Source: Anaerolineae bacterium
Lineage (GTDB): Bacteria; Chloroflexota; Anaerolineae; Anaerolineales; UBA4823
Assembly: GCA_037439525.1 (NCBI GenBank)
Contig: JBBIVW010000003.1
Span: forward strand, 124,393 to 188,392
Length of the DNA stretch: 64,000 nt
Direction of reading: 5' to 3'
Below are positions 5,151 to 20,249 of the stretch, one piece after another (position 1 is the stretch's first letter; each line of letters begins with the position of its first letter). The notes beneath the pieces were generated by a model. That model did no database searches. It worked only from the letters and a program-made list of their open reading frames with translations, and was not told where the DNA came from. The translations under genes and the position numbers were made by a program.

Positions 5151-6349
5151 ACGCGCATCATGCCATCGTAAGAGGCGCTTACCAAATAATCCCCATGCGG
5201 AGAAAAGAGCAGGCGCGTTACACCAGCCTGATGCCCTTCCAAATGCCTTAGCAATTGACCACTGGCAACTTCCCAAATTTGCACCGCGCTGGAGCTAAAG
5301 CTGCTCCCGCTGGCGATTAGCGAGCCATCCGGGCTGAAAGCCAGGCACTCGACTACGCCCTGAGCCTGAAACTCTACCAACATCTCGCCGTTATCCATAT
5401 TCCAAAGGCGCACCATGCCATCATAGTGCCCACTGGCAAGGTAGTTCCCGAAAGGCGAAAAAGCCAGCGCGCTCACCGCTCCGGTGAACGAGGTGGGGAA
5501 ATTCCACAACCACTCGCCATCCTTCAAGTCCCATACCCTGATGGCATAGCGATCAGGTGAGGCAGCAAAAAACCTGCCATCGGGCGAGAATGCAATTTGG
5601 ATCGCGGATTCCAGTTGCAAGGTTCGGGTAATTTGCCAACGGCTGGATATCCAAAAGTCAACGATGCTTGGCGCGGGGAGCTGGCCAGGATAGGCCACAG
5701 CCAGCACCGCGCCATCCGCTGAAAACGCCAAGGCGCTCAAACCTTGAGGGACATCGTACATGATCCCACGAGGTTTCCAGTCGGGCCCCTGCCAGAGTTC
5801 CAGCTTGCTGATGTAACGGTCGCCTTCAATGGTTTGACGGCTGCCGACAACCAACCATTTTCCATCTGGGCTGAATGCCAGGTCTACAATTCCGTTAGCC
5901 TGAGGATACAAAGAGCGCAACACGCGGCGAGAAAGCACATCGTACAACGCGATTGTGGAGTCTCCCGCCACTGCCAGGGTAAAGCCATCTGCGGTCCACT
6001 CCATATCGCGTACCGCTTCATACTGCCATGAGGCAAGGGCGCTAACCTGGTCAGCGTTCTGAATAGTGATGTGTGGCAAAGTGCCTGGCAAGGGGGTGCC
6101 TTCAAGAGCAAACAGCGTCGGTGTGGGGGTCAAGGTATGGGTGGCAGTGGGGGTAAGTGTGGGTGTGTTTGTAGGAATGTGGGTAAAAGTGGCCGAGGGC
6201 AAAACGGGGAGCATTGTCGATGAGGGGAAGTGCTCCATAGCCGTTGGGGTTGAAGAAAGTGCTCTAGACCCACACCCCCCTATGAAGGCAGAGGCGAAGC
6301 AAACAGCCAGGAACAAAAGGAGTCTAGGTAAATGGTGGTCAGCCTTCAT
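5132..6349 (-). CDS. WD40-repeat beta-propeller lipoprotein
   Basis: Signal peptide with lipobox (FIGGCGS), a Thr/Pro-rich linker (PTNTPTLTPTATHTLTPTPT), then WD40 repeats (LAFSPDG...DGxVRLW). Confidence 0.8.
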   Translation of the reverse strand: MKADHHLPRLLLFLAVCFASAFIGGCGSRALSSTPTAMEHFPSSTMLPVLPSATFTHIPTNTPTLTPTATHTLTPTPTLFALEGTPLPGTLPHITIQNADQVSALASWQYEAVRDMEWTADGFTLAVAGDSTIALYDVLSRRVLRSLYPQANGIVDLAFSPDGKWLVVGSRQTIEGDRYISKLELWQGPDWKPRGIMYDVPQGLSALAFSADGAVLAVAYPGQLPAPSIVDFWISSRWQITRTLQLESAIQIAFSPDGRFFAASPDRYAIRVWDLKDGEWLWNFPTSFTGAVSALAFSPFGNYLASGHYDGMVRLWNMDNGEMLVEFQAQGVVECLAFSPDGSLIASGSSFSSSAVQIWEVASGQLLRHLEGHQAGVTRLLFSPHGDYLVSASYDGMMRVWGLWP

Positions 6350-6607
6350 GGATACCTTGTTTTCCTTATCTATTTTACTTTACTAAGCCCAGGTGCTGTT
6401 TCGGGCAACCGCATCTATAAACTTCCCATTTATTTGTCTTTGCAAAGCGTTAAACAACAAAACGCCATGTGGGTTATAATGAGCGCGCTTTTGAAGGCTT
6501 ATGTTTGCCATCGCAGTGATATGGCGAGATCATAGAGCAAAACCGAAGAAAGGTGCTAAAATAGCGAAAAGGATTTGTCCAAAACAACCATGTCTTGAAA
6601 TCTGCCC

Positions 6608-7843
6608 ATGCCTAAAGACCGAGGCGTGACACGCAGATCACGGTTACACAATCTTACGCTTATGGCTCAAGAAACCAACACCCCACAAGACCCGGCGGAA
6701 CACGAAACTCCGCAGGCATCCGAGCAAACTAGAAGAAAACGCGCGGGTATTGTCATCCAAAAAATCGGCTTAGTGCTGATCAGCGCAGGGTTTCTCGGCC
6801 TGATCCTCTTCGTCGTATGGGAGCGGTACCTGCCTGCGCACGTGAAAGCGGCGCTCCACCCAGACGCCGAAGAAGCGGTCGCGTTCGCAGGGGGAGGCGC
6901 GTATGCCACCGCCACCGCAGAACCGCCCCTGGTGGCGCTTTCACCGCTAGCCACACCCTCCTCGCTGCTTCAATACGGGATATCGCGCAATATCGATTTC
7001 AAGACGATCATCCCCTCTCGCCCAAGGGTGGAAGTAATCACATATACCGTTCAACCCGGAGATACTCTGTTTAGCATTGCGCTGAAATTTGGGCTGAAGC
7101 CAGAGACGGTGCTGTGGGGGAACTTCGAAGTATTGGAAGACAATCCACATCTATTGAAACCCAACCAGGTTCTCAACATCTTGCCAGTGGATGGAACATA
7201 TTACCAATGGAAAGAAGGGGACAACCTGAACGATATTGCCGCGTTCTTCAAAGTCGAACCCGAAGCCATCCTCAACTATCCGGGAAACCATTTCGACCTC
7301 ACCGAAGTGCTCAACGGCGAAATCAACATCACCCCAGGCACATGGCTGATCGTTCCCGGAGGGAAACGCGCCATCAAAGACTGGGGGCCGCCTGCGATTA
7401 CGCGGCAAAACCCGGCTTCGGCGCGCTATTATGGAGAAGGACACTGCGGTGACGTTTACGAAGGCGCCTATGGCACCGGTACCTTTATCTGGCCAACCAC
7501 GGAGCGCACGCTCTCTGGCTACACCTATGATCCAGGCGTACACCCGGCAATCGACATTGGGGGGCAAGAAGGCAATCCGGTGTATGCTTCCGATAGCGGT
7601 GTAGTGGTATATGCCGGATGGAGCAATTATGGCTATGGCTATCTGATCGTCATCGATCATGGAAACGGTTGGCAAACGGCATACGCCCACCTGAGCGCAG
7701 TGGCAGTAAGTTGTGGTCAAAGTGTGTATCAGGGCGGCTACATCGGAGCACTGGGGAGCACAGGCAACTCTAGCGGACCCCACCTGCATTTCGAGATGGT
7801 CTATAATGGCGTCAAAGTCAACCCATTAGATTACTTACGCTAA
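6608..7843 (+). CDS. LysM-domain M23 family metallopeptidase (peptidoglycan endopeptidase)
   Basis: TM anchor and two LysM-like segments (YTVQPGDTLFSIALKFG; WKEGDNLNDIAAFF). M23 motifs HPAIDIGG and GPHLHFEM are present. The start is uncertain (alternative ATG at 6662). Confidence 0.85.
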   Translation: MPKDRGVTRRSRLHNLTLMAQETNTPQDPAEHETPQASEQTRRKRAGIVIQKIGLVLISAGFLGLILFVVWERYLPAHVKAALHPDAEEAVAFAGGGAYATATAEPPLVALSPLATPSSLLQYGISRNIDFKTIIPSRPRVEVITYTVQPGDTLFSIALKFGLKPETVLWGNFEVLEDNPHLLKPNQVLNILPVDGTYYQWKEGDNLNDIAAFFKVEPEAILNYPGNHFDLTEVLNGEINITPGTWLIVPGGKRAIKDWGPPAITRQNPASARYYGEGHCGDVYEGAYGTGTFIWPTTERTLSGYTYDPGVHPAIDIGGQEGNPVYASDSGVVVYAGWSNYGYGYLIVIDHGNGWQTAYAHLSAVAVSCGQSVYQGGYIGALGSTGNSSGPHLHFEMVYNGVKVNPLDYLR

Positions 7844-9633: not shown

Positions 9634-10661
9634 ATAGAAAAATGCACGTTTTAGTCACCGGAGGTGCAGGTTATATTGGCAGCCATACTTGTGTTGAGCT
9701 GCTTCAGGCCGGGTATGATGTTACCGTGATAGACAATTTATGCAATAGCAAGTATGAAGCACTGCGCCGTGTTCAAAGCCTGACTGGGAAAAAGCTCGAC
9801 TTTTTTCAAGTGGATTTGCTGGAGTATGAAGCTCTAAAACCGATCTTCGCTTCGCGCTCGTTTGACGCAGTCATCCACTTCGCCGGGTTAAAAGCAGTGG
9901 GAGAATCCGTCCTGGTCCCCTTGAATTACTACCACAATAACCTGGTGGGGACGATCAACTTATGCCGCCTGATGGCAGACCATGCGGTCAAAAACCTGGT
10001 GTTCAGCTCTTCGGCCACTGTGTATGGAGACGCAGCGCAGGTGCCGATTCCAGAAACCTTTCCCTGCAATCCTACCAGCCCTTATGGACGCACTAAATGG
10101 ATGATTGAGATGATCCTGCAGGATATCTACCGCGCAGACAACACCTGGAACATCATCTTGCTGCGGTATTTCAATCCAGTAGGGGCTCATCCCAGTGGAG
10201 CAATCGGCGAAGATCCTCAAGACATCCCCAACAACTTAATGCCTTATATTTCTCAGGTGGCGATTGGTCGCCTGGCTGAGCTCAAAGTGTATGGCAACGA
10301 CTACCCAACGCCAGACGGCACGGGCGTGCGCGATTACATTCATGTTGTTGACCTGGCTTTAGGGCATATTAAAGCCTTGGAGAAGATGAAAGAGAATCCA
10401 GGGATAGAAATCTACAACCTCGGCACCAATCGTGGACATAGTGTGCTGGAAGTCATTGCCGCCTTTGAGAAAGTTAGTGGGAGGAAAATCCCCTATCGCA
10501 TCGCCGCAAGAAGGCCAGGGGATATCGCCATAAGCTACGCCGATGCCGGCAAGGCAAACCGCGAGCTTAACTGGAGTTGCACCAGAAGCCTGGAAGATAT
10601 GTGCGCGGACACCTGGAACTGGCAATCCAAGAACCCCTGGGGTTATTCCGATTCTCATTGA
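9630..10661 (+). CDS. galE: UDP-glucose 4-epimerase
   Basis: [13 protein letters not shown] Rossmann motif, YGRTK catalytic YxxxK, and full-length resemblance to GalE. The start is coupled by a 4-nt ATGA overlap with the upstream gene. Confidence 0.9.
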
Positions 10662-10678
10662 AACGAAAGGGATCATTT

Positions 10679-11638
10679 ATGGAATACCGTTTTCTTGGTT
10701 CGACCGGCTTGAAAGTTTCCTGCCTCTGTCTTGGAAGCATGCAGTTCGGTTGGACAGCAGATCGAAAAACTGCATTCGATATCCTCTCTACAGCCTATGA
10801 GGCCGGAATCAATTTCATCGACACTGCGGATATTTACTCCAATTGGGTTGAAGGAAATCCGGGAGGCGTGGCTGAGGAGATTATCGGGGATTGGATCAAA
10901 GCTTCAGGGATTCCACGCCACCGATTGGTGATCGCCACAAAAGTGCGCGGCAGAATGGGAGAAGGAGCGAACGATGAAGGGCTATCTAGAGCACACATCC
11001 TCGCGGCCGTCGAGGCCTCGCTGAAAAGGCTCAAAACGGATTACATTGACCTGTACCAGACCCACTGGTTTGACGCGCAAACACCAATCTTAGAAACCCT
11101 CTCGGCTCTGGATGACCTCATTCACCAAGGGAAAGTTCGCTACATTGGGTGCTCGAATTACCCTGCCTGGCGGTTGACCGAAGCCCTGTGGACTGCGCGC
11201 CATTACCACCTGGCGGCATTTGTTTCCCTTCAGCCGCACTACAACTTGGTGCATCGCCAGGAATTTGAAAGCGAGTTAGCCGATGTTTGCCGCGCGTATA
11301 GCCTGGGAGTCATCCCTTATAGTCCATTAGGCGGTGGGTTCTTGACCGGGAAATATCGGCGAGAGGAGCAGCCTTCCAGCGTGCGCTTGCGTAACGTTAG
11401 CCGCTACTTCACTGAACGCAACTGGCAGGTATTAGACACACTCGACGCGCTGGCGCGGCAAAAGGGCAGCACGATTTCACAAGTCGCCCTGGCATGGTTG
11501 CTGGCGAACCCGCTGATCACCAGCCCCATCATCGGGCCGAGAACGCTTGACCAGTTGAAGGACAACCTGGGTGCTGTCGGGTTGCACCTCGAGGCATTCG
11601 AGATTGAGAAGCTCGACGAGGTTTCCCATTGGCGCTGA
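10679..11638 (+). CDS. aldo/keto reductase family oxidoreductase
   Basis: MEYRFLGSTGLKVSCLCLGSMQFG...INFIDTADIYS...IGCSNY signature blocks. The internal ATG at 10679 avoids overlap with galE. Confidence 0.9.
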   Translation: MEYRFLGSTGLKVSCLCLGSMQFGWTADRKTAFDILSTAYEAGINFIDTADIYSNWVEGNPGGVAEEIIGDWIKASGIPRHRLVIATKVRGRMGEGANDEGLSRAHILAAVEASLKRLKTDYIDLYQTHWFDAQTPILETLSALDDLIHQGKVRYIGCSNYPAWRLTEALWTARHYHLAAFVSLQPHYNLVHRQEFESELADVCRAYSLGVIPYSPLGGGFLTGKYRREEQPSSVRLRNVSRYFTERNWQVLDTLDALARQKGSTISQVALAWLLANPLITSPIIGPRTLDQLKDNLGAVGLHLEAFEIEKLDEVSHWR

Positions 11639-11661: not shown

Positions 11662-12651
11662 TCATGAAGTCTTATTTTCGTTAGATAAAAAATCTTCAAT
11701 GTCACCCCAGGCTGCGCAAAGCGCGGCAACAATTGCAGGATCGTACTTCGTGCCGCTACATGCCTCTATTTCCTTTAGCGCTTGTTGGGGCGATACTGCT
11801 TTCTGATACACACGTTCAGCAGTCATGGCATCGAAGGAGTCGGCTACAGCGATAATGCGCGCACCTAATGGAATCTCTTCTCCCTTCAACCCATCAGGAT
11901 AACCCCGTCCATCCCAGCGCTCGTGGTGATTGCGGATGATGGGAATGGCGGGGGTCAGGTAAGAGATGTGCTCAATGAGTTGTGAGCCATAGATCGTGTG
12001 TTTCTTCATTTCGGTCCATTCTTCTGCGTTCAGTGGACCCGTCTTGGATAGCACGGTTTCGCGAATGTAAATTTTCCCGATGTCGTGTAAGATCGCCCCG
12101 AAACGCAAGGGCTTCATGCTCGATTCCGGGAGGCCTAAACGGCGGGCAATAATCAGGGCGATGTTCATCACCCTCTCGACATGACCGCGTGTATAGCGAT
12201 CGCGCAACTCGATGGCGTTGGCCAGCATGATCAGGCTGGTTTCATATGCCTGCTCTAACTGCGCCAGTAAAAGCTGATGTGTCCTTTCCAGGCGCGAGCG
12301 GATTGTGGTCAACAATTCCTGCCGATCAACTGGTTTCACCAGATAATCTTCCACTCCAAGCTTCTTCCCCGCAAACACATCGTCGCGTTCGCCGCGCGCA
12401 GTTAAGAAAATAAAAGGAATGGTCACCCACTCGGGTCGGGTGCGCACATGCCGATAGAACTCAAAACCGTCCATCTCAGGCATGGATATGTCTGACAAGA
12501 TCAAATCCGGGCATATGGAATCCATCTTGCTAAGCGCCTCTCGGCCATGTACCGCAGAAAGCGCGCGAAATCCCTCGGTTTCCAATAGGATTTTTAGACC
12601 CTCGCGCAGTAAATCGTTGTCTTCAACCACTAAAATTACTTCGTTTGGCAT
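11662..12651 (-). CDS. response regulator with HD-GYP output domain (predicted c-di-GMP phosphodiesterase)
   Basis: REC domain (VVEDND...LILSDISMPEMDG...LVKP) followed by an HD-GYP domain (ILHDIGK...HHERWDGRGYPDG). Confidence 0.9.
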   Translation of the reverse strand: MPNEVILVVEDNDLLREGLKILLETEGFRALSAVHGREALSKMDSICPDLILSDISMPEMDGFEFYRHVRTRPEWVTIPFIFLTARGERDDVFAGKKLGVEDYLVKPVDRQELLTTIRSRLERTHQLLLAQLEQAYETSLIMLANAIELRDRYTRGHVERVMNIALIIARRLGLPESSMKPLRFGAILHDIGKIYIRETVLSKTGPLNAEEWTEMKKHTIYGSQLIEHISYLTPAIPIIRNHHERWDGRGYPDGLKGEEIPLGARIIAVADSFDAMTAERVYQKAVSPQQALKEIEACSGTKYDPAIVAALCAAWGDIEDFLSNENKTS

Positions 12652-12660
12652 CGATGCTCC

Positions 12661-15543
12661 TTAAATCGGCAACCAGATTTGGAAAACAGAACCTTTGCCA
12701 ATTTCACTCTGCACATCGATCTTTCCCCGGTGCAGGTCAACAATTTCACGCACAATCGCCAGCCCCAAGCCAGTGCCATGAATGCTCGATTGGCGAACGT
12801 TTTTGCCACGGTAAAACCGGTCAAAGATATGTGGAAGGTCTTCTTCAGGAATGCCCATGCCCGTATCTCTGATCGATAAACAGGCCATCTTATCTGCACT
12901 TCCGGTTTCAAGCTGCACCTTTCCTTCGGGTGAATAGCGGATGGCATTCGTGATCAAATTGGCAAGCATGCGCGAGAGCTGGTTGTACTCACCCTGGATT
13001 TCAAGCGGTGTGGCTCCAGGTGTAAAGGTGACCTCTACACCGGCAGCTTCAGCCATGGGTGCATGGGCGGTGATCACATCTAAGACCAGCTTGTTCAAAT
13101 CCACCGGGGCAAACTCCAGTTGAGAAACGCGTGCCTTAGTAATGCGAGATAGATCGAGGATATCTTCAACCAGTTTGGTCAATTGAAAGCTTTGCTCGCG
13201 GATCACCGCCAGATATTGGGCATGTTTTTCGGGCGGGGAGCTTTCAAGCAAGTCCAGGTAGAGGTTGATGTTCGTGGTCGGCGTGCGTAGCTCGTGAGAG
13301 ACATCGGCAACAAAGATGTCCTTCATGCGGTCCAGTTCTTTTTGATGGGTTATATCGCGTTGGCTACCCACATAGCTGACGATATGTCCGCTCTGATCTC
13401 GCACAGGCGCGATGGTCAGTAGAATGTCATACAAGCGTCCATTCTTACGACGACTAAGCAACTCGCCACTCCAGACCTCCCCCTGCTTTAAACAGGCTTT
13501 TACTTCCTCGACTTTCTGGGCTTCGTTATATTCATTTAGAATACTGAAGAAGTCTTGACCCACAAGGTCATTAAAGGTAAACCCCGATTGTCTTTCAAAG
13601 GCGCTGTTGATGATCTCGATTTGACCATTCAAATCGGTCACCACCACTCCCTCTCCAACACTGGCAAGTATGGCTTCGACGCGCTCTTTGGCGTTGAACA
13701 ATTCAGCAGTACGCAATTTTACGCGATGTTCAAGCTCAGCAGCATATTGACGCAAACGCGTCACCAGATGCAAATTCTCTAAAATCGGGGCAATTTGCCG
13801 CGCCACAACGCGCATGATGTCGATATCCTCCGAGCTGAAAATATCCCCCCCCAATTTGGGTCCCAAAGCCAGGAGACCCTGGATCTTGGCATGAGCAATC
13901 ACAGGCACCCATAAATGAATCTGTTCACTTTTCAGCAGTTGGAGCTCTTCTGCAGATAGAGCTACTTCCTCCAGAGCTTTGCGCAAATTGTTTTTTTCAA
14001 CCACGCCAAGATTCAATAAAAACTCCAGGCTGCTTCGAGGCAAGTGTGGATAATGGCGTGGCGGTTGCTCATCCAGATTGTAACGCGAGGCCACCTCGAC
14101 GATCGAAAACTCTCCATCTGCGTCTCGAAAGAAGACGCATGCTTCTTCCAGGCGCAGGATGTTCACCAAGCGTTGACCCACGATTTGGGCTAACTCGTGG
14201 TAATCGTTGACCAGCTCAAGCCCATGGGTGATATTCATCACGCCTAAACGGTAATCGTACCAGCCACCATAGAACATGGTGTCTACAAACTTCTGAACAC
14301 GACTGTGCAAAGGAATGAAGACCGTCGCCAGGAATAATACCAAGAGCGTGTCCAGGATGCGATTTTCCCCAATTTCTTCAGGCAAGAATCGATGTAATAA
14401 GAAGAAGAGGATGAGATATGCCGCCCCCATGATTGAATACACAAGGATATAAGTTGCGCCTCGGTTGACATGGCGTTCAATTTCGATTAGATGCAGACGA
14501 AAAATCGCATAACCGTAGGAAATGGGGATAAAACTCAGCAGCGCAAAAGCGAAACGATACGGGAGAATGGTATTTTGAAAAAGCGCATCTGGCAAAATCG
14601 TCAGTGTGACAATGAGTAAAACCGTCAGCCCGCCTCCTAGAGCAACCAGGCGAATGCGGCTTCGCACCCCTGGAGACTTCGGTCGCATATACGCATATAC
14701 GAGCAACACGCCGACAACAAGCAGGTTGATTGCCAGGTAAAATCTGCCGATAGTTACCAGTTGAGGAAACCAGGGCATAACACGGAGATTCACTCCAGAA
14801 AAGATCGAAATTAGGTGCGGGGCGGCGCCGATGAGTGCCAGCGCGTAGAAGAAGGCGACGATCCAATTCTGTTTTTTACTTGCAGTTTTTTGGGGGAAAT
14901 GAAAATGGAGATGAATGGACAGTGGGCCAATGAACCACACCAGGGCGTTAAACAAACTGGACGCCCAACGAGGCCCCAGGTAAGATGCCACGCCTGCAGT
15001 GAGGCTTACGGCACTCACCTGACACCAATAAAAGAATATGCTCGCTGCGCTATCTGGAGGGCGAAATGTCTGCACGCCTAAGCCGATGCTCCAAAAGATC
15101 AGGGCCACCAAAATCGGGATGAGGCGAAAGAAGATCTCCACCGCATCTGGTTGTACCAGACGAATGGAGATGTGCATTTCCCTCCCGCCACGGTCAATGA
15201 CAAAACCAACCAGGTCGCCAGGATGTTTATCGTAATAGGTCGTGATGCGCGTCCCCCAAGGCTGTCCATCGATTTCTTTGATCACATCCCCTTTGAAGAG
15301 CAAGTTGTCCGCTGGGCCACCGGATTCTATCGCTCCAATGGACCCGTCTGGATGAAGGGTCTCGATGCCATCATGGGGGTAGGCAATCACCTGCACAATC
15401 GTCCATAAGATACCCAAAAGAACAACGACGGAGATGGCAAACGGCAAGCTCAACCACCACTGGCGACGAACGGTTTGGAAGATTGGTCGCTTGATCGTTA
15501 GCATATTTCGTATTTTAACATAGGCGCTTGTGATTGCCTCCAT
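12661..15543 (-). CDS. polytopic sensor histidine kinase (TM, PDZ-like loop, ~9-10 TM, GAF, PAS, HisKA, HATPase_c)
   Basis: 960 aa. An N-terminal TM is followed by a GDVIKEIDGQPWG PDZ-like segment and a long hydrophobic multi-pass region. The H-box is VSHELRTPT and the G-boxes are DTGMGI / GTGLGLAIV. Confidence 0.9.
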   Translation of the reverse strand: MEAITSAYVKIRNMLTIKRPIFQTVRRQWWLSLPFAISVVVLLGILWTIVQVIAYPHDGIETLHPDGSIGAIESGGPADNLLFKGDVIKEIDGQPWGTRITTYYDKHPGDLVGFVIDRGGREMHISIRLVQPDAVEIFFRLIPILVALIFWSIGLGVQTFRPPDSAASIFFYWCQVSAVSLTAGVASYLGPRWASSLFNALVWFIGPLSIHLHFHFPQKTASKKQNWIVAFFYALALIGAAPHLISIFSGVNLRVMPWFPQLVTIGRFYLAINLLVVGVLLVYAYMRPKSPGVRSRIRLVALGGGLTVLLIVTLTILPDALFQNTILPYRFAFALLSFIPISYGYAIFRLHLIEIERHVNRGATYILVYSIMGAAYLILFFLLHRFLPEEIGENRILDTLLVLFLATVFIPLHSRVQKFVDTMFYGGWYDYRLGVMNITHGLELVNDYHELAQIVGQRLVNILRLEEACVFFRDADGEFSIVEVASRYNLDEQPPRHYPHLPRSSLEFLLNLGVVEKNNLRKALEEVALSAEELQLLKSEQIHLWVPVIAHAKIQGLLALGPKLGGDIFSSEDIDIMRVVARQIAPILENLHLVTRLRQYAAELEHRVKLRTAELFNAKERVEAILASVGEGVVVTDLNGQIEIINSAFERQSGFTFNDLVGQDFFSILNEYNEAQKVEEVKACLKQGEVWSGELLSRRKNGRLYDILLTIAPVRDQSGHIVSYVGSQRDITHQKELDRMKDIFVADVSHELRTPTTNINLYLDLLESSPPEKHAQYLAVIREQSFQLTKLVEDILDLSRITKARVSQLEFAPVDLNKLVLDVITAHAPMAEAAGVEVTFTPGATPLEIQGEYNQLSRMLANLITNAIRYSPEGKVQLETGSADKMACLSIRDTGMGIPEEDLPHIFDRFYRGKNVRQSSIHGTGLGLAIVREIVDLHRGKIDVQSEIGKGSVFQIWLPI

Positions 15544-15570
15544 AACCCCCTAACAATTAGGCAAGTGGCA

Positions 15571-16632
15571 TTACGCGCTTAGAATGTCTAGAGTTTGAAC
15601 GAGGCTGTGTAAAACCTGTGCGGGGGCCGCGTTCGGGTGGGCTTCCGCCAGGCATTGGTTCGCCTGTTGACGATATTTTTCGAGTTGGAGAAGCAGAAAC
15701 ACACTCGCTCCACTGGTTTCGACCAACTCGAAAACGCGCTGCAAAGCGCGTCGATCGCGCGCGGCGCGCTCTATTTCTTGACGCAAATCTGCGCATTGGG
15801 GCTCTGGAAGAACCGCCAGCGCGTATCTCACCGGTAAAGATCGTGAAAGCCCGCGATAATAAGCCAGGCTTCGCTCTTCGGTAAGGGGCTTGAAATCTTC
15901 GAGGTCATCGAGCAACTGTACGGCAATACCGATATTTTCACCAAATTGCTGATAAGCTGCCAACTTTGACGGCTCCGACGTGGCAAGGGATGCGCCCAAA
16001 CGACACGCCAGGGCGAAAAATGCGCCGGATTTCTCCCGCGCACGTGTCCAATAGCTATCTAACGAAGGATCATGCTGCAACAGATCGCGGTGCTGACCTG
16101 CGCACATGACTAAAAAGCGTTTATAAAATTCGCTTAGCAGAGTTGGATCCAAGGATTGGGTGAGAGGCGATCGACTTTGGGAAAGAATGACTGAGGCGCT
16201 GAAATAAAACCCAGAGGCGATATTGAGCGCTGCTCCGCTTCCTATAGAAGACCAATGTGGATCCGGCTCGTCCTGATCTTCTATGGTGTCCATGATATGC
16301 GCGGCGACATAGTACAACAGCCACGCCGCAGCGAGGTCATCTGCCCAATGCATTTCCCCTCCGGCAGCCTGGCAACATAACCCGGGCAAGAACGCCCAAC
16401 GCAGCGGGGAACGCCGATCGACCTCAGTGTCTTCGTTAAAATGCGGCAGAGTCAAACGCATGGCATGGACAAACTCATGCCACGCGCCTGACTCCGCCCA
16501 AACTTGTTCGATTCTGTCCCAAATGGGCTTGAGCGTAAGACGGCTCAAGAAGCCCGCGGGGTCACATCCAGGATGTCGCTTTAATGGCGAGTTCAGAGAG
16601 GCGGACGCTCCCGCTCTGAACGGTTCCTCCAA
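15571..16632 (-). CDS. polyprenyl-synthetase-fold protein, ComQ-like putative peptide isoprenyl transferase
   Basis: Trans-prenyltransferase fold blocks are present: AAGG...AAAW..AAHIMDTIEDQDE (atypical first Asp-rich motif with no RRG after it), GQHRDL, KSGAFFALA, and IAVQLLDDLEDF (second DDxxD). The start is uncertain. The maximal ORF begins at TTG 16632 and overlaps the upstream small ORF by 71 nt. Alternative starts are TTG 16548 and ATG 16461. Confidence 0.75.
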   Translation of the reverse strand: MEEPFRAGASASLNSPLKRHPGCDPAGFLSRLTLKPIWDRIEQVWAESGAWHEFVHAMRLTLPHFNEDTEVDRRSPLRWAFLPGLCCQAAGGEMHWADDLAAAWLLYYVAAHIMDTIEDQDEPDPHWSSIGSGAALNIASGFYFSASVILSQSRSPLTQSLDPTLLSEFYKRFLVMCAGQHRDLLQHDPSLDSYWTRAREKSGAFFALACRLGASLATSEPSKLAAYQQFGENIGIAVQLLDDLEDFKPLTEERSLAYYRGLSRSLPVRYALAVLPEPQCADLRQEIERAARDRRALQRVFELVETSGASVFLLLQLEKYRQQANQCLAEAHPNAAPAQVLHSLVQTLDILSA

Positions 16633-16771
16633 GTCCAGCGCAAAGGAAATTCATTTCCTCGCGGCTCAGTTGGAATCCTTTGTCTTTCAATGCAGCTTCG
16701 GGATCGTTGCGCCATTTTTCCGCAAATTCAGCATTATTGGTGATGTGATAAACGACCTGTGCGAGTGACAT
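16562..16771 (-). CDS. 69-aa candidate pheromone/RiPP precursor (LigA/NHLP-like helical leader, GG motif, C-terminal ...ATSWM)
   Basis: AAGGAG lies 6 nt upstream of the ATG at 16771, and a strong promoter lies upstream. The leader xxDPEAALKDKGFQLSREE resembles LigA-subunit/NHLP-clan leaders. The stop lies within or adjacent to the start region of the ComQ-like gene. Confidence 0.6.
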   Translation of the reverse strand: MSLAQVVYHITNNAEFAEKWRNDPEAALKDKGFQLSREEMNFLCAGLGGTVQSGSVRLSELAIKATSWM

Positions 16772-16832
16772 ATGCATCTCCTTTGTCTTTACAATATTGA
16801 TAAGACGCCTGACATTTTTGCAAGGTACTGTA

Positions 16833-16861
16833 AGTTTAGCATAAAAAAGCCTCCTTGTCAA
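16833..16861 (-). promoter_or_regulatory. sigma70-type promoter for the small-peptide operon
   Basis: The reverse strand reads TTGACA (16861-16856), a 17-nt spacer, then TAAACT (16838-16833). It sits about 60 nt upstream of the precursor ATG. Confidence 0.5.
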
Positions 16862-17137: not shown

Positions 17138-18061
17138 ATGACAAACCATTCCGTGGCAACACTTGATCTGAATTTCATGAATATGCCGGGTGCAATCGCG
17201 GCATATGCGCTACCCCATGAAAAGGGGGTGCTGCTCATCGAAAGCGGGCCCGCTTCGACAATCAAAAACCTCGATTCCAATCTCGCCAAAATGGGATATT
17301 CGCTTGCTCAGGTGACTGATGTGTTTCTCACGCACATCCATCTCGACCATGCAGGCGCAGCCGGTTGGCTCGCCAGAACTGGCGCGCGCATTCATGTGCA
17401 CACAAATGGTGCGCCCCATTTACTCAATCCAGAACGTCTGCTCAACAGCGCGTGGAGAATCTATGGTGACGCATTGGAAGAACTATGGGGAGAATTCATC
17501 CCGGTGCCCGAGGACCAACTCCAATCCCACGAGGATAATGAGGTAATCGACATCCATGGGATAAAGATTCGCACGATAGACACCCCAGGCCATGCCTATC
17601 ACCACTTGAGCTACATTTGCTTGGATACCTGTTTCAGCGGCGATATCGGAGGGGTGCGCCTCGCTGGAGGCAAACACATCCGCCTGCCCATGCCTCCGCC
17701 GGAATTCAACCTCGAACTCTGGCGAGAAAGCCTCCACCGCCTGACCCTCGAACGATCGAAGGGAGTCTTTTCGAAAATCGCTCCAACGCATTTTGGCATT
17801 TACGCAGACGCCGATTGGCATCTTCAAGCAGCCCGCAAGGCGCTTGATGAGGTCGAAGAATGGTTGGAATCCGCAATGCAGGATAACCCTGACGTAGAAC
17901 AACTCAACACGCGGTTCCTCACCTGGACGGAACAACGCTCGATGCGAGAAGGCGCCTCGAGCGAAGATTTGCGCCTCTTTGAGACCGTCAATCCATCGAA
18001 AATGTCTTCGTATGGCCTCTATCGCTACTGGCATAAAGTGCGCATGAGCGAACACAATTGA
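17138..18061 (+). CDS. MBL-fold metallo-hydrolase
   Basis: THIHLDHAG (HxHxDH) motif, with a later TPGH and further His/Asp ligand positions. Confidence 0.85.
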   Translation: MTNHSVATLDLNFMNMPGAIAAYALPHEKGVLLIESGPASTIKNLDSNLAKMGYSLAQVTDVFLTHIHLDHAGAAGWLARTGARIHVHTNGAPHLLNPERLLNSAWRIYGDALEELWGEFIPVPEDQLQSHEDNEVIDIHGIKIRTIDTPGHAYHHLSYICLDTCFSGDIGGVRLAGGKHIRLPMPPPEFNLELWRESLHRLTLERSKGVFSKIAPTHFGIYADADWHLQAARKALDEVEEWLESAMQDNPDVEQLNTRFLTWTEQRSMREGASSEDLRLFETVNPSKMSSYGLYRYWHKVRMSEHN

Positions 18062-18399: not shown

Positions 18400-19344
18400 T
18401 TAAATCTGCTGCAATTGATAGGTGTATCCACCTTCCAGGGATAACTGTTCCGAAAGATGTCGCCTGAGGTATTGCCCACAATTGCTGCCAATCAAGTTCT
18501 CCTCGAGCTCTCCAATGCTCACTATGACCTCGTACCCCGCCTTACGTAAAGCCTCAAAAAGCGCATCGCCTTCATTTGACTCGTATGGATCGACATATGA
18601 CGTAAGGTTGTGTTCTCTGGCGCGATATGTTGGGTTTAGTGGGGTGATTTTGATGAGGAACTTTTCAGGCGAGAAATATGCGCGCAGTTTTTCAACCTCC
18701 ACAGGATACCCTTTCGCAAGGGCAAAGTTCAAGGTAACTTTGCGGTCTCCGGGCTGGTAAAAACGCTCTCCATAGGCAGCCATTTCGGTAAAACCCCACT
18801 TTTTTATCGGGATGATGCAGTCGCGCAATGCCTCATCGGTTGTATGGATGGAAAATTGAAATTGAAACTGACCGTTAGGATACATATCCCTTTTGATTTC
18901 TAGCAAGCGCTCAAAGAACCGCTCGCCCCGGGATGGCGCCACCGTCGATATGGAAGGCATTAACCCTGGGGCGTTAAGGCGCCGAGGCAACTCTTCCAAG
19001 ACATCCAAGACAGCGAGATTCAAAGCCGGTTCCCCCATACGAGCGAATTGAATCTTGAATTGTCTGCAAGGCACACTCGCCTGCGGGTATCTTCTGTGCA
19101 CCAGAAACTCAATCTGCTCCATGATCTCGTCCTTGCTGGCAACACCTTTATACCCCCCACCCGCATCGCACATCAGACAGCGCACCGGACAACCGAACAT
19201 GGTCGAAACGAGCAACACCCACTTGTCCTCACGGGGCAAGGGAGGTTGTATTGCTTCCACACATTCCAGATGCTTGCCGTCACCAAACTCTAGGATATAA
19301 ACCAGGGCAACTTCTTCTTTACCCGTTGAGGCAATCACGCGCAT
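18400..19344 (-). CDS. radical SAM enzyme with RlmN/Cfr-like core
   Basis: CPVRCLMC (CX3CX2C) cluster. Ordered blocks ARMGEPALN, SISTVAP, FSIHTTD, LNFALAKG, IKITPLNP and a C-terminal GSNCGQY resemble the RlmN/Cfr core, including the CGQ loop. Confidence 0.8.
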   Translation of the reverse strand: MRVIASTGKEEVALVYILEFGDGKHLECVEAIQPPLPREDKWVLLVSTMFGCPVRCLMCDAGGGYKGVASKDEIMEQIEFLVHRRYPQASVPCRQFKIQFARMGEPALNLAVLDVLEELPRRLNAPGLMPSISTVAPSRGERFFERLLEIKRDMYPNGQFQFQFSIHTTDEALRDCIIPIKKWGFTEMAAYGERFYQPGDRKVTLNFALAKGYPVEVEKLRAYFSPEKFLIKITPLNPTYRAREHNLTSYVDPYESNEGDALFEALRKAGYEVIVSIGELEENLIGSNCGQYLRRHLSEQLSLEGGYTYQLQQI

Positions 19345-20249
19345 AGCTCTGTCTCCTTCAAAGTCCGATAAATCTGCATAGCGGCTAAGAGACCATCCCC
19401 GATGGCAATGCCTGTTTGCCGGTATATGCCACGATGTACATCACCAATGAAATACAATCTGCCCGCCTTTAACAATTCGGCTTTCAACAATTGTATCTTA
19501 TCCGTAAGAAAATCGAGGCGGGGTTCTCGCCCTAAGGCACACAAGAGCACATCCGCATGAAACTCAAACTGCTCTCCTGCTCTTTGCCCGGATAAGAGCA
19601 ACCCCGCCGAGGAATCAAAAGCAACTTTCACGATGTTTGTGTTTGGCACATAGGCGATACTCTCTATTTGGCGGGCGCGTTGCCATAACAATGGCAGGCA
19701 CTTGAGGGTACTACTTCTATTTATGATCGTGATACGGTTACGTGGCGCAAGATTAAGGGCGTAATCAAAAGCCGCATCCCCTGCACCGAGGATCGCCACC
19801 TTTCTGCCGATCAAATCTCGCAACGGGTAAACTTCATAATAAACGTATCGCTCAGCACCCTCTTCCAGCATGTGCGCGGGCAATTGCCGTGGTTTTGTCC
19901 CACTGGCGATCACGACGATGCGGGACTGATATTCATTTTGCTGAGTTGTGAGCAGAAAACGCCCTTTTTCATAGTTAAGCGCCAGGACTTCTTCATAACA
20001 TACATCAACAGCCAGAAGTTCAAATTGCCGAACCATTTGATGCACCAATTGAGGTCCGGCTATTCCACCCGGAAAGCCGGGGTAGTTTTCGACCAAATTC
20101 GCATTCCAAAGCAGCCCGCCGAGACACGTGGCTTCAATCAACAAGGGGTCAAGGTCATAGCGCTTCATCTGGAGCGCCGCGGTCATCCCTGCCGGACCAC
20201 CGCCAATGACCACCACATCCCGATAAAGACCAGCGCTCATGACATCCAT
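19335..20249 (-). CDS. FAD/NAD(P)-binding oxidoreductase (thioredoxin-reductase-like fold, no CxxC)
   Basis: VVIGGGPAGMTAA and a second VAILGAGDAAFDYA dinucleotide motif. The CATCDG redox-active disulfide is absent (the sequence reads EATCLGG). Confidence 0.8.
   Translation of the reverse strand: MDVMSAGLYRDVVVIGGGPAGMTAALQMKRYDLDPLLIEATCLGGLLWNANLVENYPGFPGGIAGPQLVHQMVRQFELLAVDVCYEEVLALNYEKGRFLLTTQQNEYQSRIVVIASGTKPRQLPAHMLEEGAERYVYYEVYPLRDLIGRKVAILGAGDAAFDYALNLAPRNRITIINRSSTLKCLPLLWQRARQIESIAYVPNTNIVKVAFDSSAGLLLSGQRAGEQFEFHADVLLCALGREPRLDFLTDKIQLLKAELLKAGRLYFIGDVHRGIYRQTGIAIGDGLLAAMQIYRTLKETELCA

Follow-up and report, generated by a model that had tools for sequence, protein, structure and literature searches.

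An Anaerolineae operon proposed to encode a prenylated-peptide signalling cassette related to ComQXPA, with a predicted c-di-GMP output

Quorum sensing by peptides that carry a prenylated tryptophan (Trp) has long been treated as a speciality of the Firmicutes. An operon of four minus-strand genes from an Anaerolineae genome raises the question of whether such a system also operates in the Chloroflexota and, if so, what its receptor and its output might be. The operon is located within a stretch of 64,000 nucleotides (nt), here called the window, which covers positions 124,393 to 188,392 of contig JBBIVW010000003.1 (Anaerolineae bacterium, assembly GCA_037439525.1). It consists of genes for a small peptide (X), an enzyme of the polyprenyl synthetase fold (Q), a histidine kinase (HK), and a response regulator (RR). 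A preliminary description of the window had interpreted the operon as a candidate cassette of the ComQXPA type from Chloroflexota, in which a peptide and a prenyltransferase are joined by a polytopic kinase and a regulator, and this core proposal was backed by every comparative test that we ran. As a whole, we favour, with some reservation, the model that the operon is a lipopeptide signalling cassette, a relative of ComQXPA with an output through cyclic diguanosine monophosphate (c-di-GMP). The operon is made up of the following features:

16833 to 16861, minus strand: candidate sigma-70 promoter of the X-Q-HK-RR operon, TTGACA-17-(TG)CTAAACT, with 10 of 12 matches the best site of the region
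16778 to 16783, minus strand: Shine-Dalgarno sequence AAGGAG, 6 nt 5' of the ATG of X, read from the sequence
16562 to 16771, minus strand: X, precursor peptide of 69 amino acids (aa), identified by matches to NF038399 and PF14407, 40 unique homologues, and the ratio of nonsynonymous to synonymous substitution rates (dN/dS)
15571 to 16548, minus strand: Q, 325-aa enzyme of the trans-prenyl-synthase fold and predicted peptide Trp prenyltransferase, identified by PF00348, an AlphaFold2 (AF2) model, and ComQ-like characters
14209 to 15543, minus strand: sensor module of HK (residues 1-445) with transmembrane (TM) helix 1, an extracytoplasmic PDZ-like domain (about residues 60-130), and a polytopic TM bundle, identified by hydropathy, PDZ_2, and profile
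12661 to 14208, minus strand: cytoplasmic part of HK with GAF (447-590), PAS (620-735), HisKA (741-802), and HATPase_c (853-959) domains, identified by Pfam
11662 to 12651, minus strand: RR, 329 aa, with REC (6-117) and HD-GYP (142-307) domains, identified by Pfam, NCBIfam, and motifs

The association of these genes was analyzed by a genome scan with one genome per species and an alignment of closer Q homologues as a query. The scan yielded 56 loci, among which 52 carry Chloroflexota names (mostly Anaerolineae/Anaerolineales and one Thermoflexales) and three carry Firmicutes names. An X-like gene lies directly 5' of Q in 48 of the 50 Chloroflexota loci with sufficient room, and a protein with the same N-terminal kinase module is encoded directly 3' of Q in 45 of 48 Chloroflexota loci. 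With such frequencies, the arrangement cannot be attributed to chance. A REC-HD-GYP regulator directly follows HK in 15 of the 29 main-clade loci that have room downstream. Thus, the synteny check in Anaerolineae that had been suggested before came out clearly for X, Q, and the sensor, and in about half of the loci for the regulator. Relative L001 is fully syntenic with the window cassette. Sister clades within the Anaerolineae carry the genes in the order X-Q-P(HisKA_3)-A(REC+GerE), which is the full ComQXPA composition (REC+GerE in L034, L058, and L068). At 50% identity and E <= 1e-30, the Q family amounts to 397 clusters in a set of 1.84 billion representatives.

The peptide X ends with KATSWM, whereby Trp68 is followed by a single residue, Met69. 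Its leader (about residues 1-45) matched NCBIfam model NF038399 with 34.5 bits (cutoff 40, E 1.6e-8) and Pfam family PF14407 (Frankia_peptide) with an E of 0.0016. Relatives of X scored 41.7 and 46.1 bits on NF038399 and also matched TIGR04509, TIGR03793, and nitrile hydratase alpha. The expectation of a ComX-like precursor was therefore not borne out, as the leader appears to belong to the nitrile hydratase leader peptide (NHLP) clan, like that of PalX from Paenibacillus alvei. The name Os1348, which also belongs to this clan, was considered as a taxonomic pointer and rejected, since it denotes a small protein of Pseudomonas sp. Os17 and not of Chloroflexota. An alignment of 40 unique homologues (67-71 aa) shows strong conservation of residues 1-45 (pattern M-x-LAQVVY..StD..FA.....dPe.aLa..G..lS.EE.aFL) and variability over the next approximately 20 residues. 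The Trp residue is invariant in all 40 sequences and is followed by one residue in 30 of them and by two in the other 10. Pairwise dN/dS values range from 0.03 to 0.38 (dN 0.052 and dS 1.72 between the X genes of the window and L001), and the tail usually changes at a rate several-fold above that of the leader. This dN/dS analysis, which had been proposed as a check on the small open reading frame (ORF), points to purifying selection on a peptide that is conserved in relatives; judged from these rates, X is a genuine coding gene.

Several relatives deviate from this simple precursor design. Distant relatives encode multi-core precursors, in which only a short Trp-containing cassette of the X-like gene is repeated two to four times in tandem. 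These include L046 (5468-5962), with IVSLADEKAAAWRAGHELG in four copies, L034 (162-485) with three copies of KPMFNWY, and L041 (5654-5986) with three copies of GRTWFE, as well as L035 (2028-2285) and L042 (5690-5980) with two copies each. Such tandem cassettes would give rise to several lipopeptides per precursor, with the Trp located internally instead of near the terminus. Locus L010 harbors two nearly identical X genes in tandem (2361-2576 and 2606-2821, dN/dS 0.05) ahead of one Q. The X gene of L028 (5556-5946) is split over two frames (MTLAQVVYNMSKDRDFASQLQSNPEF... / ...GYQLSKEELAFLL...ASWRG), which may represent a frameshifted pseudogene or an assembly error of the metagenome-assembled genome.

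Q matched Pfam PF00348 (polyprenyl_synt) with 60 bits (cutoff 27). It contains a first Asp-rich motif (FARM) with D87/D91/D93 and a second Asp-rich motif (SARM), D214-D215-L-E-D218, which is preceded by Q211; both IMDTIEDQDE and DDLED are present. The FARM follows the pattern h-h-M-D-x-[VI]-[EQ]-D-x-D-x-P in all Q homologues and the SARM reads Q-x-x-D-D-L-x-[DE] in nearly all of them. As comparators we used ComQ from Gracilibacillus timonensis (L064, where comQ is accompanied by a comP for a polytopic protein of 670 aa and by a REC-LuxR comA), ComQ from Pseudogracilibacillus (L063), the enzyme from Desulfosporosinus fructosivorans (L062), and IspA and IspB from E. coli (RefSeq annotation). In the joint alignment, the Q family and ComQ have in common a FARM of the type IMDx[IV][EQ]DxD and a Trp about 12 residues later, which are both absent from IspA and IspB. 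The likeness of the FARM to that of ComQ, to which the preliminary description had drawn attention, holds, since G. timonensis ComQ has IMDDIQDQDA (IMDDIQDQDAHENVPW) where the window enzyme has IMDTIEDQDEPDPHW. In the latter the second Asp of the FARM is replaced by Thr, which applies family-wide, and no RRG follows the FARM in the Q family or in ComQ. Both also lack the GGKRxRP motif (GGKRLRP in IspA, GGKRIRP in IspB), at the aligned position of which the window enzyme has SPLRWAFLP. The LGK loop after the SARM, present in IspA and IspB, is deleted in Q at the same position as in ComQ. The SARM of Q (VQLLDDLED) fits the pattern (F/Y)QxxDDxxD, which is common to isoprenyl diphosphate synthases (IPPS) and thus does not discriminate Q from them.

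A profile of the Q family, compared with these two E. coli proteins as the only IPPS outgroups, gave 140 bits for the Desulfosporosinus enzyme, 62 bits for the two Bacillaceae ComQ proteins, 39 bits for IspB, and 31 bits for IspA. The profile check on the enzyme that had been proposed thereby places Q nearer to the ComQ-locus proteins (62-140 bits) than to IspA/IspB (31-39 bits). The Desulfosporosinus enzyme bridges the groups, with about 96 bits to ComQ, 83 bits to the window enzyme, and 110 bits to P0120, a clade with StheQ-like members from Thermomicrobiales, which Q itself matches with an E of 2.9e-16. NCBIfam equivalog models of IPPS yielded 12-46 bits on Q at cutoffs of 275-600. The best single sequence match in the PDB was a geranylgeranyl diphosphate (GGPP) synthase (3lmd, 48 bits), and the indole prenyltransferase Ord1 was matched with an E of 6.5e-7. 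The AF2 model of Q (predicted local distance difference test, pLDDT, 84) gave Foldseek template modelling scores of 0.70-0.78 to many IPPS structures, which were ranked first, and of about 0.72 to Ord1. Because IPPS and Ord1 score alike, the fold search was set aside as a test of function. Based on the alignment and profile data, Q most likely belongs with the ComQ-type peptide prenyltransferases and not with the chain-elongating synthases. Natural fusions of X and Q also occur (P0112, P0115, and P0116, 401-413 aa), in which an X-type leader and a Trp motif (GFWE, GYWE, or LGWS) are N-terminal to Q. One such fusion is encoded in L068 (6001-7242), where its neighbours are a REC-GerE regulator and a divergent PDZ-HisKA_3 kinase. 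For several other representatives (406-436 aa), the alignment to Q starts only at about residue 80-100, and these may be fusions as well.

If X and Q make a signal, the candidate receptor is the kinase that is encoded next to them. Pfam assigned GAF, PAS, HisKA (PF00512), and HATPase_c domains to HK, as well as a weak PDZ_2 match (E 0.012); the homologous sensor of L042 matched PDZ_2 with 30.8 bits (cutoff 27). These assignments agree with the earlier view of a HisKA-type kinase with GAF, PAS, and PDZ-like modules, the last of them being the weak one. A crude hydropathy scan showed seven strong TM segments and, by eye, further weaker ones, which makes the previous estimate of about 10 TM helices plausible. 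A profile of HK residues 1-450 found the Q-adjacent protein in every clade of the Chloroflexota with 138-700 bits. It also detected the ComP-like kinase of Desulfosporosinus (hmmsearch 79.7 bits; hhalign 98.3%, E 2.6e-14, 406 columns), and by these profile comparisons the window sensor is homologous to that kinase.

The module is connected to three types of output. In the window clade, GAF-PAS-HisKA comes next, and approximately every second locus then has a REC-HD-GYP regulator. A second type consists of a HisKA_3 kinase with a subsequent REC-GerE regulator, which corresponds to the ComP/ComA composition (L034, L042, L058, and L068). The third type was observed in L008 (2146-4056), a locus of the StheQ-like Thermomicrobiales clade, where the PDZ-plus-polytopic sensor is fused to GAF and HD domains. 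Its neighbours are a 67-aa precursor with the C-terminal sequence GIWW and a StheQ-like enzyme, and the contig breaks off within the HD domain. The fusion resembles a one-component form of the HK and REC-HD-GYP pair of the window and provides an independent link of the sensor to an HD-type output. A module that stays constant beside Q and X while the outputs vary is the pattern that is expected of a ligand-binding receptor.

RR matched PF00072 with 95.6 bits and PF13487 with 142 bits (HD_5/HD). The predicted phospho-acceptor is Asp54 in ...ILSDISMPEMDG, and the HD189 dyad as well as the motif HHERWDGRGYP at position 242 are intact. The Pfam and NCBIfam matches together with the intact motifs confirm that the output domain is HD-GYP instead of a LuxR-type helix-turn-helix. 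By its sequence features, RR is an HD-GYP c-di-GMP phosphodiesterase response regulator, whereby the enzymatic activity is a predicted one. In L006, a second REC-HD-GYP gene (6114-7253) is located upstream of X, besides the one behind the kinase. Since L006 has this extra copy and 14 of the main-clade loci have no adjacent copy, the partner regulator seems to move about within genomes.

How does the operon compare to systems that have already been described? A census from 2014 reported no comQXPA-like locus outside the Firmicutes, with the genus Desulfosporosinus being listed (PMC4008528). The preliminary description had stated that such loci are only catalogued in Firmicutes, which is true of this census, but it has been overtaken by a preprint from August 2026, according to which the 69-aa peptide StheX of Sphaerobacter thermophilus (Chloroflexota) is farnesylated at Trp68 by StheQ, and in which crystal structures are presented (10.64898/2026.08.29.745113). 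The same preprint claims that ComQ-like systems reach beyond Firmicutes and describes neither a kinase nor a regulator (10.64898/2026.08.29.745113). In 2023, PalQ was reported to prenylate an NHLP-type precursor, encoded together with a histidine kinase, at its C-terminal Trp (PMC10853753). A 2026 review names ComQ, PalQ, and the P domain of ChrPC as the characterised peptide prenyltransferases that resemble trans-isoprenyl diphosphate synthases. Given StheQ/StheX and PalPXQ, novelty can no longer be claimed for the enzyme-peptide pair as such. Our literature searches retrieved no paper in which the cassette of the Anaerolineae or its HD-GYP output is described. Thus, what appears to be undescribed is the complete cassette of receptor and output, its spread across the Anaerolineae, and the REC-HD-GYP (c-di-GMP) output.

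A close parallel to the enzyme-peptide pair is StheQ/StheX, which stems from the same phylum and likewise involves a 69-aa precursor with a prenylated Trp in the second position from the C-terminus. StheQ shares with Q the trans-IPPS fold, a FARM of the type D-x3-D-x-D, and a Gln three residues ahead of the second motif. Several members of the StheQ-like P0120 clade (Thermomicrobiales names) carry all 11 residues that are named in the preprint with consistent spacing. In contrast to the window, StheX was described downstream of stheQ, and the pseudo-SARM of StheQ is NDxxD, whereas the window enzyme has DDLED. The identity between Q and the StheQ-like clade is only approximately 28-33%. PDB sequence searches with Q and P0120 retrieved no StheQ structure among the entries (Foldseek library to April 2026).

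With ComQXPA, the operon has in common the four co-directional genes for a prenyltransferase, a Trp-containing precursor, a polytopic kinase, and a regulator, as well as the variable peptide tail, the lack of a dedicated protease or exporter, and the derived characters of the ComQ enzyme. It differs in gene order (X-Q-P-A vs. Q-X-P-A), in the leader (NHLP clan vs. ComX leader), in the kinase (PDZ-like/GAF/PAS/HisKA vs. HisKA_3), in the regulator (REC-HD-GYP vs. REC-LuxR), and in the SARM (Asp vs. Asn), and Q shows only about 20% identity to the ComQ proteins of Bacillaceae. By strict criteria, the window locus falls outside ComQXPA, from which it deviates in gene order, in the classes of kinase and regulator, and in the Asn motif. 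Even so, a function like that of ComQXPA, but with a c-di-GMP output, is the most likely one. The preliminary description had presented the order X before Q as a difference from Bacillus; this is correct for the order, but the order is not unique to this locus, since the Desulfosporosinus locus L062 has it as well. L062 resembles the window further in having a small ORF directly 5' of Q with Trp as the second-to-last residue (..RFWV) and a kinase with the same TM1, PDZ-like, and polytopic sensor. It differs in the pseudo-SARM NDLDD, the HisKA_3-type core, the REC+GerE regulator, and a small ORF that has no detectable NHLP match. The PalP-PalX-PalQ system of P. alvei likewise combines an NHLP-type precursor with a Trp C3 prenyltransferase of the isoprene synthase fold, which has a SARM Asp and is encoded adjacent to a histidine kinase. 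However, PalQ needs Trp as the very last residue and is abolished in its activity by a C-terminal extension, whereas the Trp of the window peptides is followed by one or two residues; moreover, PalX has a classical long NHLP leader and PalQ falls into a sequence cluster of its own. A PalX sequence taken from the PalQ paper gave no significant match to the X profile. Ord1 (PDB 9V4G/9V4J) shares the all-alpha-helical fold and the Gln upstream of the second Asp-rich motif, but it is an indole prenyltransferase that acts on free Trp and not on a peptide, and it has no precursor or kinase context.

From these data, the following mechanism is proposed. The first step, shown by the sequence comparison, is the translation of X to a 69-aa precursor, whose NHLP-type leader is folded and whose C-terminal tail is flexible. 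Q, being of the ComQ/StheQ type, would bind the leader and transfer a prenyl moiety, presumably geranyl or farnesyl, from a FARM-held diphosphate to C3 of the Trp68 indole, and we consider it highly probable that Q prenylates this residue. The equivalent reaction in ComX, PalX, and StheX yields a tricyclic pyrroloindoline. A protease and an export route that are not encoded in the cassette would then release a short prenylated C-terminal peptide. The 960-aa kinase would detect this peptide via the N-terminal module that accompanies Q, and that the adjacent kinase senses the prenylated product as a signal seems reasonably probable to us. PDZ domains generally bind C-terminal peptides. As the tail behind the Trp is also fixed at one or two residues, it is suggested that recognition of the free C-terminus (Trp plus one to two residues) is the task of the extracytoplasmic PDZ-like domain, while the lipid would sit in the polytopic bundle. 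Judged from the domain content, the kinase would phosphorylate the REC domain of the HD-GYP regulator and thereby change c-di-GMP hydrolysis, so that the output would be second-messenger turnover and not transcription of the ComA type.

Several observations weigh against this model. The SARM of the window clade starts with Asp (DDLED) and Asn occurs only in the distant members P0114, P0117, and P0120, while exchange N215D in StheQ leads to a loss of 98% of the activity (10.64898/2026.08.29.745113). PalQ is active with a SARM of D200/D204, and even its D200A/D204A double mutant is still active (PMC10853753), so these Asp residues are not essential in PalQ. The direct match of the X profile to a StheX-like peptide was not significant (13.7 bits) and the link is provided by the shared matches to the NHLP clan. 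The sensor of HK yielded nothing against the ComP of Bacillaceae in pairwise BLASTP and only a non-significant hhalign result (55% over 63 columns), and homology to a Bacillus-type ComP is therefore not claimed. A protease or exporter is not encoded within the cassette. The adjacent HD-GYP regulator is missing in 14 of the 29 main-clade loci with room, which means that the output wiring is not fixed. Finally, the obligate linkage to the kinase is the only observation from which the signalling role of the lipopeptide is inferred.

This last point leads to an alternative in which X and Q make a Trp-prenylated product that is not an autoinducer but another type of ribosomally synthesised peptide with post-translational modifications (RiPP), e.g., an antimicrobial, a surfactant, or a membrane-anchored lipopeptide, with kinase and regulator controlling its production or self-protection or sensing an unrelated envelope cue. 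No biological role has been assigned to PalX or StheX (PMC10853753), prenylation raises the membrane activity of peptides (PMC13290415), and the multi-core or duplicated precursors of some relatives are of a kind that is often found in natural-product RiPP clusters; the 14 loci in which no regulator is present beside HK would fit as well. On the other hand, the sensor accompanies Q through every clade with three output types, as it would be expected of a dedicated receptor, and no transporter or immunity gene is present within the cassette. In addition, variable cores behind a conserved leader recall the pherotype variation of ComX (PMC4008528). We regard the non-signalling RiPP as rather unlikely.

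Much less probable is a further explanation, according to which X is not a substrate at all but a small NHLP-like protein that acts unmodified, e.g., as a partner that regulates Q or the kinase. Small proteins of the NHLP clan such as Os1348 can be functional (PMC7726476), and the AF2 model of X, although of low confidence (pLDDT 63), is mostly helical including the tail (H57-67). Yet the near-C-terminal Trp is invariant inside an otherwise fast-evolving tail, multi-core relatives repeat nothing but the Trp-containing motif, and homologous systems for which direct biochemistry is available modify this Trp. Hardly any weight is given by us to the possibility that Q is an ordinary chain-elongating prenyl diphosphate synthase, such as a GGPP synthase, whose position next to X and HK is functionally meaningless. 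Such an enzyme would be in line with the polyprenyl_synt match, the canonical-looking SARM (QLLDDLED), the 3lmd and Foldseek rankings, and the name 'geranylgeranyl pyrophosphate synthase' that JGI gives to many homologues. It is not in line with the absence of GGKRxRP, RRG, and the LGK loop, which serve in the binding of isopentenyl diphosphate or diphosphate, with the replaced second Asp of the FARM, with the scores far below cutoff on all IPPS equivalog models, or with the near-universal synteny with X and the sensor kinase and the fusions of X and Q; the likeness in fold cannot discriminate, as Ord1 scores equally. Compared to these explanations, a lipopeptide signalling cassette is the reading that we retain.

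With respect to the layout of the operon, the four minus-strand ORFs are present where they had been placed before, with HK extending from 12661 to 15543 (960 aa), and the gaps of 27 nt between Q and HK and of 9 nt between HK and RR were also reproduced. Q had been described as abutting or overlapping X. A mechanically called ORF that begins with the TTG at 16632 does overlap with X, but homologues of Q conserve an N-terminal 'IWxxIExxWxxSGAW' that is confidently modelled by AF2, and the start was therefore set at the TTG at 16548, the first in-frame start codon past the stop codon of X. It is located 13 nt downstream of X, so that the two genes abut and the overlap is dropped. The promoter TTGACA-17-TAAACT with its TG extension is present, but the attribute 'strong' cannot be upheld by its own statistics: six promoter-like sites were found in the region, where 5.7 are expected from shuffled sequence, and thus little can be concluded from the match by itself. 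The closest relative L001 has retained the two hexamers as well as the TG, although the synonymous sites of X are saturated (dS ~1.7), and through retention in this one close relative the candidate promoter is weakly supported. AGGAG-type sites occur 5' of X in most of the aligned relatives.

Some neighbouring genes were also inspected. One of them is a conserved neighbour:

17138 to 18061, plus strand: metallo-beta-lactamase (MBL)-fold hydrolase, divergent from X, identified by PF00753 (65.8 bits)

A divergent MBL-fold gene is found ahead of X in 29 related loci. The protein matched no specific NCBIfam or PDB family; the best PDB match was the uncharacterised ST1585, next to weak matches to B3 lactamases and acyl-homoserine-lactone lactonases. 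It may be an accessory gene, e.g., for turnover or processing of the signal. Further upstream of X, the minus strand encodes a 314-aa radical-SAM protein (18400-19344), which is a distant relative of RlmN/Cfr (45 bits, cutoff 290), and a thioredoxin-reductase-like flavoprotein (19335-20249; 154 bits, cutoff 343), whose gene overlaps with the radical-SAM gene by 10 nt. Both were considered as RiPP tailoring enzymes and rejected, as they are not conserved beside the cassette in relatives. At the other end, an aldo-keto reductase ORF (10577-11638, plus strand) is convergent with RR. It was called from a TTG, but the family match begins at residue 35 (MEYRFLG...) and an internal ATG is probably the true start. 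A homologous aldo-keto reductase is also encoded behind RR in L001.

Anaerolineae, which are filamentous Chloroflexota, occur in abundance in sludge, sediments, and the subsurface; they are difficult to cultivate and influence how granules and flocs are structured in wastewater systems. The window locus and approximately 50 related species-level genomes supply the receptor module and the alternative outputs that are absent from the sole published case from the Chloroflexota. A wider proposal, about which we are less than convinced, would be that Anaerolineae widely use a prenylated-Trp peptide pheromone, whose dedicated PDZ-plus-polytopic receptor directly feeds c-di-GMP hydrolysis through REC-HD-GYP and, in sister clades, LuxR-type transcription instead. 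If this wider proposal is true, quorum sensing by a peptide with a defined receptor would for the first time be known from outside the Firmicutes, and a lipopeptide autoinducer would be directly linked to the turnover of a second messenger. Confirmation of the cassette would add a clade of peptide prenyltransferases with Trp at position -2 or -3 and an Asp-type second motif, which is of interest for the enzymatic lipidation of peptides. It would also offer a series in which the evolution from ComQXPA-type to HD-GYP-type wiring can be followed, as well as a handle on cell-cell signalling in the Anaerolineae.

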